DNA from: Escherichia phage Turkey5
Sequence record: PQ471516.1
Reading direction: 5' to 3' (one strand)
Length of the DNA: 64,000 nucleotides
The position numbers were made by a program, and so were the translations under genes. Positions 30,295-31,905 of this stretch are shown piece by piece; the first letter of the stretch is position 1, and each line of letters starts with the position of its first letter. The notes under the pieces are model-generated. The model had not been told where the DNA came from. It worked only from the letters and a program-made list of their open reading frames with translations, and searched no databases.

Positions 30295-30639
30295 ATGGAT
30301 TTTGATTATTCGGTTTACAGTATAAAGTACCATGATTCTTTTGAATTGTATTGTAATCTTGTAAAGGGTGATAGCAAGCACGATTGTGAGCAATTCCTGC
30401 GATACGATGGGAAACAATTTCATTTCTATGATTACTGCACTGGAGATAAAGAAGAAGTACCTGATTATACTGCACTGGATGATGCAGAACTATTTCAGGC
30501 TAGACTTGTATTTGATGCAAGATTAGTTTGTACTATTGAAGAGATGATTCCTATACAACAGGAATTAAAAGAACATTCCAAAAAGAAAGTCGAGTACGGA
30601 TATAATCATCGTTATCACTTTAATCTAGAGGATAAGTAA
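30295..30639 (+). CDS. Family B (short subtype) protein (114 aa)
   Basis: ATG 30295 with RBS GGAG; motif DAELFQARLVFD; C-terminus YNHRYHFNLEDK paralogous to that of the ORF at 31115. Confidence 0.6.
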   Translation: MDFDYSVYSIKYHDSFELYCNLVKGDSKHDCEQFLRYDGKQFHFYDYCTGDKEEVPDYTALDDAELFQARLVFDARLVCTIEEMIPIQQELKEHSKKKVEYGYNHRYHFNLEDK

Positions 30640-31115
30640 TGAGTTTAGAAAGTGCATTAGAATTAGGTCGAAGGATAGTTCCTATTATTAATTTCTACCA
30701 AAAGAATTTATATAAGCTAGGATACTTCAATGATGAAATCCTGACTCCTGAAGAACTGGATTTGGGATACATGTGTATGTTAGCCTTTGGTCAGTATCAT
30801 ACTAGTGGTGATTGTGATGTGAATCTTAGTGGTGGATATCTTGATTTCGAGAGGAATAGTGCACTCCAATTCGTAGACAGAAATGGTTCAGTACAACGCA
30901 TTGAACCGGAAGAGTTTAAAGAATGTAGTACTATGACCGAGGATATGTATTTCCAGTTAAGTACTCTTTACAGTTCAGAGGCACTTGATGCAATGATACT
31001 TTTTGATTACTTATATGGCAGTGATGTTCCTAATTTTGTGTATCTAAGTCTTACTCGTTTGGATATTCTGGAAGAATTATATGAACAGGATTTATTAAAA
31101 CAGGTACATATATAA
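30639..31115 (+). CDS. Family B (long subtype) protein (158 aa)
   Basis: TAATG junction; N-terminus MSLESALELGRRI; motif EDMYFQLSTLYS. Confidence 0.65.
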   Translation: MSLESALELGRRIVPIINFYQKNLYKLGYFNDEILTPEELDLGYMCMLAFGQYHTSGDCDVNLSGGYLDFERNSALQFVDRNGSVQRIEPEEFKECSTMTEDMYFQLSTLYSSEALDAMILFDYLYGSDVPNFVYLSLTRLDILEELYEQDLLKQVHI

Positions 31116-31468
31116 TGGAATTTGAATTTGTAATATCGACACATTGTTTCAAGTTACAGCGTCAGTACTTTTGTAATTTAAACAAAGGTGATATGATACA
31201 TGCTGGGAATGAATATCTTCATTACAGTAGTGGTAAATTTACATTTGTTAATTACGATAATTATCTTTCTCCACACGAAGAGATGCTGGATTATACAGTA
31301 CTACCAGATGGTGAACTATTTCAGCAGTCCCTGGTATTTGATAAGAAGTACATTTGTTCTTTTGAGGAAGTTTGTGCTTTGCAGAAGATCATAAAAGAAT
31401 ACGATGAGAGTACTTCTGGGCGTGATATAATAATTAATGAATATAAGTTCAACCTAGAGGATATGTAA
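31115..31468 (+). CDS. Family B (short subtype) protein (117 aa)
   Basis: TAATG junction; motif DGELFQQSLVFD; C-terminus EYKFNLEDM. Confidence 0.65.
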   Translation: MEFEFVISTHCFKLQRQYFCNLNKGDMIHAGNEYLHYSSGKFTFVNYDNYLSPHEEMLDYTVLPDGELFQQSLVFDKKYICSFEEVCALQKIIKEYDESTSGRDIIINEYKFNLEDM

Positions 31469-31905
31469 TGAGTTTAGAAAGAGCATTAGAAATTGCTGAG
31501 TTGATTGATATGTGCAGAACTAAAATCAAAACTGACTGCCTCAATGGGTATCTATATCAGGAAGGCAATTCATATTACCGAATGTTATTTGATGAAAGTT
31601 CTGATAGTATTGAAATGTATGATGATAAGTTAGATACCAGATATACAGTTGAATGCGATGTTAGTTTAGAAGATAATTACATATTCTTTTGTAAGAACTC
31701 TAGTATTGCATTGAATTATAATGAGCTTCTCCCTTATTCAGTACTTGAAGGTAATTGGGGTAGTCCAGAATATTACTTCCAGCAAAGTACTATCTACAGT
31801 GAAGAAGTCCTTGATAAACTCGTCATTTTGTGGTACTTTAATAACACGAGTCCCAATAACTTCTACATGGACTTAGACATATTAGATGTAATGAAAGGGG
31901 GATAA
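31468..31905 (+). CDS. Family B (long subtype) protein (145 aa)
   Basis: TAATG junction; N-terminus MSLERALEIAELI; motif PEYYFQQSTIYS then FYMDLDILD. Confidence 0.65.
   Translation: MSLERALEIAELIDMCRTKIKTDCLNGYLYQEGNSYYRMLFDESSDSIEMYDDKLDTRYTVECDVSLEDNYIFFCKNSSIALNYNELLPYSVLEGNWGSPEYYFQQSTIYSEEVLDKLVILWYFNNTSPNNFYMDLDILDVMKGG

Follow-up and report, generated by a model that had tools for sequence, protein, structure and literature searches.

Large families of paralogous genes are known in general terms from RaK2-like and other jumbo phages: about 10% of the gene products of RaK2 are paralogs (PMC3622015), CBB carries 22 paralogous open reading frames (ORFs) (PMC5259590), and Bacillus phage G encodes about 35 copies of a zinc ribbon (PMC7824862). 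Here, we analyzed a 64,000-nucleotide stretch (the window) of Escherichia phage Turkey5 (PQ471516.1), in which at least 39 paralogs that share a motif containing Phe-Gln (FQ), 12 short (S) and 27 long (L), occupy the plus strand at 25567–50324 (array B). The analysis centers on four consecutive genes at 30295–31905 in the order short-long-short-long, S1, L1, S2, and L2. An earlier note had claimed that these genes are a two-gene cassette duplicated in tandem, and that the array expands by multi-gene units, and had suggested that short and long subtypes work as pairs. The two S-L pairs proved to be homologous gene for gene and to share nearly identical junctions. For their order, we lean towards a lineage-specific rearrangement of an ancestral run of S genes and a neighboring run of L genes.

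Results

Gene-for-gene similarity of the two S-L pairs

S1 (114 amino acids (aa), 30295–30639) is the first gene after a non-coding gap of about 200 nt, and is followed on the plus strand by L1 (158 aa, 30639–31115), S2 (117 aa, 31115–31468), and L2 (145 aa, 31468–31905), with a TAATG stop/start overlap at each of the boundaries S1/L1, L1/S2, and S2/L2. Called from its ORF and translation, S1 matches phrog_15629 (E 1.5e-32) and is annotated in Escherichia phage vB_EcoM_JNE01; S2 belongs to PHROG 15629 as well. L2 matches phrog_9317 (E 3.9e-42), and L1, a divergent member of the L group, matches phrog_9317 (52.6 bits) and phrog_12674 (45.7 bits). Overall, S1, S2, L1, and L2, together with L3 and L4 of the continuing L-run, match PHROG 15629, 9317, and 12674 with E values of 1e-13 to 4e-42. 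S2 and L2 are the orthologs of the genes termed Sb and Ly, respectively, in 121Q-like phages. JNE01, which is 95.9% identical to the window over 29000–37000, carries the same four genes, annotated as hypothetical, at 92–97.5% protein identity. The ratios of nonsynonymous to synonymous differences (pN/pS) against JNE01 are low (S1, 0.33; L1, 0.09; S2, 0.39; L2, 0.14), indicating that all four are genuine genes under purifying selection. Over the same 29000–37000 interval, the 121Q/PBECO4-like phages align at about 77% identity in short stretches only. Judged by its sequence, the source phage is a jumbo myovirus of the genus Asteriusvirus.

S1–S2 had the highest Smith–Waterman score (188) of the 1,596 pairs of array proteins; the two proteins are reciprocal best matches with 36–38% identity over about 116 aa (E 8e-17). 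L1–L2 ranked fourth (score 125; 26–31% identity, E 2e-8). L2 is the best partner of L1, but the best partner of L2 is L3 (132), and the scores for L3–L4 and L2–L4 are 136 and 110, respectively.

At the DNA level, the global score of unit 1 (S1-L1) against unit 2 (S2-L2) lies 7.5–9 standard deviations above those of all other two-gene units of the array, and blastn finds two collinear segments between them (216 nt at 65% and 65 nt at 68%). In gene-order permutations, a collinear pair as strong as S1L1/S2L2 was rarely obtained (p = 0.005). The collinear similarity far exceeds chance. Most of the collinear signal is supplied by S1/S2 and the junction; the L-L component is weak, as L1 and L2 share 53.5% DNA identity, scarcely more than the 47–54% that either of them shares with other L genes. 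The 40 nt 5' of S1 and the 40 nt 5' of S2, at the L1/S2 boundary, showed no likeness beyond AT-richness and no blastn match; thus, no similarity was found across the outer unit boundaries.

A third S→L pair (38237–38590 and 38584–39171, plus strand) scored 72 and 112 against S1 and L1, respectively, and is the second-best collinear pair (p = 0.04). It is weakly collinear with both units; three S-L pairs are mutually collinear.

The S→L junctions

The junctions J1 (S1→L1, 30613–30662) and J2 (S2→L2, 31442–31491), which form the plus-strand repeat family D2, each comprise the last codons of the S gene, a GAGG Shine–Dalgarno sequence, the TAATG overlap, and the first eight codons of the L gene. 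They are 88% identical over 50 nt, with 36 of 38 positions matching in the core, and constitute the top direct repeat in the array (blastn E 2.6e-11) and the stronger of only two DNA self-matches at E < 1e-3 within 26–51 kb. A 26-nt junction core occurs exactly twice in the window, with 0 occurrences expected. The near-identity of the junction DNA, as well as the ORFs, termini, and junction strings that the earlier note had quoted, was thus reproduced as described.

The two halves of the junction have different relatives. The S half encodes the S end, [YH]-x-F-N-[LI], which in S2 is predicted to form the terminal strand of the modeled protein, followed by a purine-rich stretch that is the ribosome-binding site of whichever gene comes next. 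L2 and Ly of phage Ecwhy_1 have the same L half, ATGAGTTTAGAAAGAGCATTAGAAATTGCT, from which phages A4 and Turkey3 depart at two to four positions. In these three phages, the gene upstream of Ly is an L gene or a small ORF, and never a short gene of the S-alpha clade, to which S1 and S2 belong. The gene Lx of A4 begins with ATGAGTTTAGAAAGTGCATT, which is L1-like.

The 3' end of S2, CTAGAGGATATGTAATG, matches S1 at 16 of 17 positions and its ortholog Sb at 9 of 17 (manual count). Correspondingly, the S2 protein ends in NLEDM and S1 in NLEDK, whereas the Sb lineage ends in NIGIP[ES] or NIGNPE in the core phages and EJP2. Since the 3' end of S2 is unlike that of its own orthologs, the identity of the junctions is probably secondary and not inherited. 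Identical residues within the junction are encoded by identical codons throughout, compared with only about 35–45% elsewhere in L1/L2. J1 of JNE01 differs from that of the window by two clustered synonymous changes (GCACTGGAA) at positions where J1 and J2 of the window are identical, a difference that possibly reflects ongoing conversion. These results point to recombination or gene conversion over a short patch, or to copying of the junction when S2 and L2 were joined, and not to inheritance of an intact duplicated unit.

Two other candidate causes of the junction identity were rejected. Predicted RNA structure at J1 and J2 (z = 0.2 and −0.4) is like that at control junctions, with z near 0, and a structured RNA was dismissed. 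Selection acting strictly at the nucleotide level on the 5' end of the L gene was discarded because JNE01 carries two synonymous changes there.

Gene order in related phages

Five other genome configurations were compared (Ecwhy_1, Turkey3, vB_Ec-M-J, A4, and EJP2). The homologous site of the 121Q-like phage Ecwhy_1 reads Sa-Sb-Sc-Lx-Ly-Lz-L-L, where Sb is 60% identical to S2, Sc about 43–44% identical to S1, and Ly 56% identical to L2. In Turkey3, the order is Sa, a fragment of Sb, an inserted S gene, Sb, Sc, Sd, a small ORF, and Ly, and in vB_Ec-M-J it is Sa, Sb, Sd, a small ORF, and Ly. A4 has one S-alpha gene and three unrelated or other-type genes, followed by Lx, Ly, Lz, and L. EJP2 has four S-alpha genes in tandem, including three recent Sb-like copies, next to which larger, different proteins are encoded (EJP2 2415–3857); no tblastn match to L2 was found in the EJP2 genome. 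Therefore, the S-alpha genes form homotypic runs in five of the five other configurations, the orthologs of S1 and S2 lie in S-S runs, and the L2 ortholog lies in an L-only run and never directly 3' of an S-alpha gene. The S-L-S-L order was not found in these relatives and is seen only in the window phage and JNE01. Orthologs of L1 were found by tblastn only in JNE01, plus one weak match.

In Turkey3 (6001–6886), the inserted S-type gene is flanked on its left by a truncated ORF that repeats the opening 28 codons of Sb and on its right by the complete Sb, and this arrangement reads as the footprint of a cassette insertion by recombination inside an S gene.

Age of the paralogs

In neighbor-joining trees of 110–150 columns, S2 grouped with Sb (bootstrap 100%) and S1 with Sc (76%) within the S-alpha clade (96%). 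An S1-like copy is present in EJP2 alongside Sb-like copies, and these observations together place the S1/S2 split before the divergence of these phages. The Sb-like genes of EJP2 are 38–46% identical to core Sb, compared with 60% for S2, and EJP2 is absent from the matches to the window's RnlA-type RNA ligase, which extend down to 62% identity. EJP2 thus appears to be the more distant genome on sequence grounds, and, as it has an S-run, parsimony would make the S-run ancestral and the S-L-S-L order derived.

In the L tree, L2 grouped with Ly (100%); L3, L4, and the core L genes joined L2 in a clade that left out L1 (65%), and L1 grouped with the long gene of the third pair at 38584 (82%). The neighbor-joining and PHROG placements of L1 differ, and only S1/S2 are reciprocal closest paralogs, since L1 points to L2 but L2 to L3. 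L1 also has a mosaic look, with residues 1–10 L2-like and residues 11–20 resembling the 12674/38584 type. Lx of the 121Q-like phages was rejected as an ortholog of L1, because it is a recent duplicate of an 8126-type gene (bootstrap 100%).

Order statistics of the array

The earlier note had generalized from the two units to expansion of the whole array by multi-gene units. Permutation of the gene order did not bear this out: six collinear neighboring matches were observed across the array against 7.6 expected (p = 0.77), and block duplication as a general process was rejected accordingly. The S and L genes tend to cluster in runs (12 runs against 17.6 expected, P = 0.026), and 82% of random gene orderings contain an S-L-S-L quartet. 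Growth of the family seems to have proceeded mainly by single-gene tandem duplication and local reshuffling.

The proposal that short and long proteins work as pairs was likewise not supported. S→L adjacency is not enriched in the array (six observed against 8.3 expected), most array neighbors are TAATG-coupled, including L1→S2, and the orthologs of S2 and L2 are non-adjacent in phages beyond the window phage and JNE01. No covariation was seen between phages in the copy numbers of S-alpha genes and 9317-type L genes (4 and 0 in EJP2, 1 and 4 in A4, and 3 and 5 in the core phages, respectively), and the four S-alpha genes of EJP2 occur without any L2-type gene. A mirror-tree comparison of the six adjacent S→L pairs was weakly positive (rho = 0.46, p = 0.04). 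A model of S2 fused to L2 through a (G4S)6 linker gave a predicted template modeling score (pTM) of 0.64, read from the pTM only, with no inter-chain error map, against our own rough expectation of about 0.5 if the domains were independent and about 0.76 if they formed a rigid complex.

A common core in short and long proteins

An iterated hidden Markov model (HMM) search seeded with the short genes converged on the 39 ORFs of array B. All of them contain the core motif E-x-x-[YF]-F-Q-x-S-[TL]-[LV], in which F and Q are at least 90% conserved, and S1, L1, S2, and L2 match the superfamily HMM with E values of 1e-16 to 1e-22. Short and long forms differ mainly in the number of residues before the motif (63–83 and 102–142, respectively), whereas 37–69 residues follow it in both.

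A confident AlphaFold2 model of L2 based on the paralog alignment (mean predicted local distance difference test (pLDDT) 93, pTM 0.87) starts with an N-terminal helix and seven strands; two short helices follow, the second of which contains FQ, and the chain closes with a long helix, the terminal strand, and another helix at the C-terminus. In the linker-fusion model, S2 begins with five strands, after which come the FQ helix, the long helix, and the terminal strand. The predicted S form would thus keep the L order of elements but be without the N-terminal helix, two of the strands, and the C-terminal helix, with about 40 fewer N-terminal residues, and the predicted family fold is a beta-meander, the FQ helix, the long helix, and the terminal strand. 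Alignment of the S and L profiles by hhalign covered a 16-column motif only (probability 65%), and homology of S and L outside the core is thus deduced from the iterated HMM search, intermediate sequences, and the predicted layout. Given the common motif and the same predicted order of secondary structure, the description of short and long genes as two separate subtypes does not hold.

The predicted fold had no match among solved structures, PADLOC, Pfam, and NCBIfam gave no match for the S or L proteins, and homology searches revealed no similarity to any characterized protein, including anti-defence proteins. Structural relatives of the family are found in RaK2, GAP32, and Serratia phage BF. 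As far as the sequences indicate, the superfamily is phage-restricted, rapidly diverging, and confined to RaK2/121Q-like phages. The array B proteins are predicted to be cytoplasmic; their median isoelectric point is 4.8, compared with 6.2 for the other window ORFs, and their net charge is −10 to −20.

Expression signals and surroundings of the four genes

A pattern scan located sigma70-like consensus sites at 25037, 27681, 34478 (12/12, extended −10), 39168, and 42462, although such sites are fewer overall than in shuffled sequences. Terminators were found at 27650 and 42430. The hairpins at 27650–27709 and 42430–42490 are terminator-like and are directly followed by near-consensus promoters, which suggests that array B consists of several early operons and not of one transcript. 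The perfect sigma70 consensus at 34478–34505 (TTGACA, 16 nt, TG-TATAAT) lies inside a mechanically called ORF (34459–34833), the true start of which is probably the ATG at 34522, as annotated in JNE01.

The L-run continues on the plus strand beyond L2 at 31908–33427, with L3 (31908–32387), a 182-aa member (32397–32945), and L4 (32945–33427), as indicated by alignment scores and the tree clade with L2. Among the paralogs, pN/pS against JNE01 ranges from 0.06 to about 1.6, showing uneven constraint. These three genes and the paralog at 27072–27662 diverge from JNE01 in having 85–87% nucleotide identity or pN/pS of about 0.7–1.6, whereas their neighboring paralogs have pN/pS of 0.06–0.14; this suggests hot spots of diversification or replacement. 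The gene at 33782–34162 is out of register with JNE01 (381 nt in the window versus 393 nt annotated in JNE01), indicating an indel or a replaced segment.

Elsewhere in the window, an unrelated tandem family of 19 paralogs of about 75 aa (array A) occupies 20522–26083, with a stray copy inside array B at 35828–36037, and three ORFs of about 90–100 aa at 57454–58283 form another small tandem family. A tRNA scan of the window found no tRNA genes. The RnlA-type RNA ligase (61771–62913) is 86% identical to that of the core Asteriusviruses, and a 315-aa protein encoded 8 kb upstream of it (53004–53951) is 35% identical, so that the JNE01 lineage differs from the 121Q-like phages mainly in the accessory region.

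Discussion

Of the origins considered for the S-L-S-L order, the one we hold slightly more likely than not is a rearrangement, in the lineage of the window phage and JNE01, of an ancestral S-run and a neighboring L-run, with the junctions kept or made alike. S1 and S2 would be old paralogs of the S-alpha run and L1 and L2 old members of the L-run, and one gene would have moved, or one been inserted. The likeness of the junctions would then have two sources. One is the family-wide conservation of each half, which covers the S terminal strand with its ribosome-binding site, the TAATG stop/start, and the first part of the L N-terminal helix. The other is the 3' end of S2, which was probably acquired from S1 through recombination or gene conversion over a short patch. 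Several observations weigh against this account: the collinearity of the two units in the permutation test, the weakly positive mirror-tree, and the paralog-to-ortholog distance ratios, which, calculated from identities, are similar for S and L, so that the clock leaves a simultaneous duplication possible. The grouping of L1 with the 38584 gene may be long-branch attraction, since the PHROG assignment puts L1 in the family of L2; moreover, the polarity argument draws on few genomes and on short neighbor-joining alignments, and the exact path of the rearrangement is not reconstructable. The collinearity, the mirror-tree, and the distance ratios also lend some plausibility to an ancient tandem duplication of an S-L cassette, after which L2 would have spawned L3 and L4, and other Asteriusviruses would have lost L1 and regrouped their S genes; we consider this history possible but distinctly less likely. 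It would account for S1/S2 and L1/L2 being mutual best or near-best partners, for the junction repeat as the strongest DNA self-match of the array, for the PHROGs shared by S1 with S2 and by L1 with L2 (the best PHROG of L1 being that of L2), for the weak collinearity of the third pair with both units, and for the faster evolution of both genes of unit 1 (S1 is about 43–44% and S2 60% identical to its ortholog, and none is detectable for L1). The cassette history is opposed by the S-S adjacency of the S1 and S2 lineages in all five other configurations, including the more distant EJP2, by the L tree, in which L2 lies nearer to L3, L4, Lx, and Lz than it does to L1, by the dissimilar outer boundaries, and by the secondary identity of the junctions, and it requires the loss of L1 and a reordering of the S genes in several lineages. 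Thus, of the duplicated cassette in the earlier note, the gene-for-gene homology and the near-identical junctions stand, whereas duplication as a unit is disfavored by the S-only runs elsewhere, the position of L2 in the tree, and the boundaries.

Whatever the origin of the order, each S protein could form a functional heterodimer with the next L protein, a conserved coupled junction ensuring their co-expression. The overlap and Shine–Dalgarno sequence at both junctions, the mutual collinearity of three S-L pairs, and a fusion pTM above our estimate for unrelated domains are consistent with such a complex. The same pTM, however, falls below our estimate for a rigid one, coupling is equally present at L1→S2 and between most array neighbors, S→L adjacency is below expectation, the orthologs of S2 and L2 are separated elsewhere, and EJP2 (four S-alpha, no L2-type gene) and A4 (one S-alpha, four L) show unbalanced numbers; we therefore regard the heterodimer as unlikely. 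Slightly less credible still is a role of the junction as a recombination linker that shuffles S and L modules, with each S protein docking onto the next L to form combinatorial two-part binders against variable host defence proteins. The S protein would lack the N-terminal helix and L would supply it, and the clustered double change between J1 of the window and J1 of JNE01 would record gene conversion still taking place from junction to junction. The proteins could also be virion or inner-body components cleaved at E-E-Y-Y-F-Q, which resembles a TEV (tobacco etch virus)/3C-like site (ExxYxQ). E-x-x-Y-x-Q is matched in many paralogs, for example at L2 residues 99–107, and phiKZ-like phages have paralogous families of inner-body proteins. 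In the L2 model, however, the motif lies within a buried helix of the folded core (pLDDT above 95), the residue after Q is variable and not G or S, and the host-type promoters suggest early expression. In addition, the virion proteome of phAPEC6, which lists 62 proteins, contains no gp40x–gp45x entry, and none of the array genes gp416c–gp453c of that phage is in it (PMC7247149). The TEV match is probably coincidental, and both a cleavage site there and a virion role of the proteins were rejected as highly improbable.

The equivalent region of CBB is suspected to hold early host-takeover genes (PMC5259590). Our best guess is that the array encodes early, non-virion proteins expressed from host-type promoters, which probably bind host factors for takeover or counter-defence. 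Host variation would drive the diversification of the paralogs, and S and L need not be obligate pairs. The profile of small, acidic, non-structural, strain-variable, and unevenly constrained proteins fits host-factor binders; against this assignment, it is drawn from context and no anti-defence homology was found.

By itself, a duplicated two-gene cassette would be of limited importance, and the locus is ordinary gene-family evolution inside an orphan family. Its interest lies in how a very large orphan family is built, with at least 39 copies in about 25 kb, or 7% of the genome: the gene boundaries stay conserved while the gene bodies diverge to 25–35% identity. The family varies between closely related therapeutic-candidate phages, and, if its members are true host-range or counter-defence factors, they would help to explain differences in host specificity among Asteriusviruses.

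The papers searched gave no description of the FQ-motif family, its fold, or its array structure. Compared with the expansions in RaK2, CBB, and phage G, array B is likewise a large tandem family of small proteins in one clade, but it has a different fold and no DNA-binding or recognizable domain, and it packs at least 39 copies into 25 kb. The S→L arrangement resembles toxin-antitoxin and other two-subunit modules in its TAATG overlap and internal Shine–Dalgarno sequence, but here the partners share a motif and a fold layout, and L→S is coupled likewise. The array B proteins resemble known anti-defence proteins of phages, for example Ocr, ArdA, and anti-CRISPRs, in being small, strongly acidic, likely expressed early, and highly variable among related phages, but searches found no similarity to these proteins in sequence or fold. 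Tandem paralog arrays in variable regions, with strain-dependent content and presumed anti-host roles, are also known from MGF360/505 of African swine fever virus (ASFV) and from K3L amplification in poxviruses. Array B is similar to the ASFV and poxvirus families in its tandem paralogs, its variable region, and a copy number and content that differ by strain, whereas its proteins and hosts are unrelated and its paralogs are very old (25–40% identity) and not recent amplifications. The closest described relatives are PHROG 15629, 9317, and 12674, uncharacterized families of 121Q, PBECO4, and JNE01 proteins, of which S1, S2, and L1–L4 are direct members; relative to these families, the S-L-S-L order and the gene L1 are specific to the lineage of JNE01 and the window phage.

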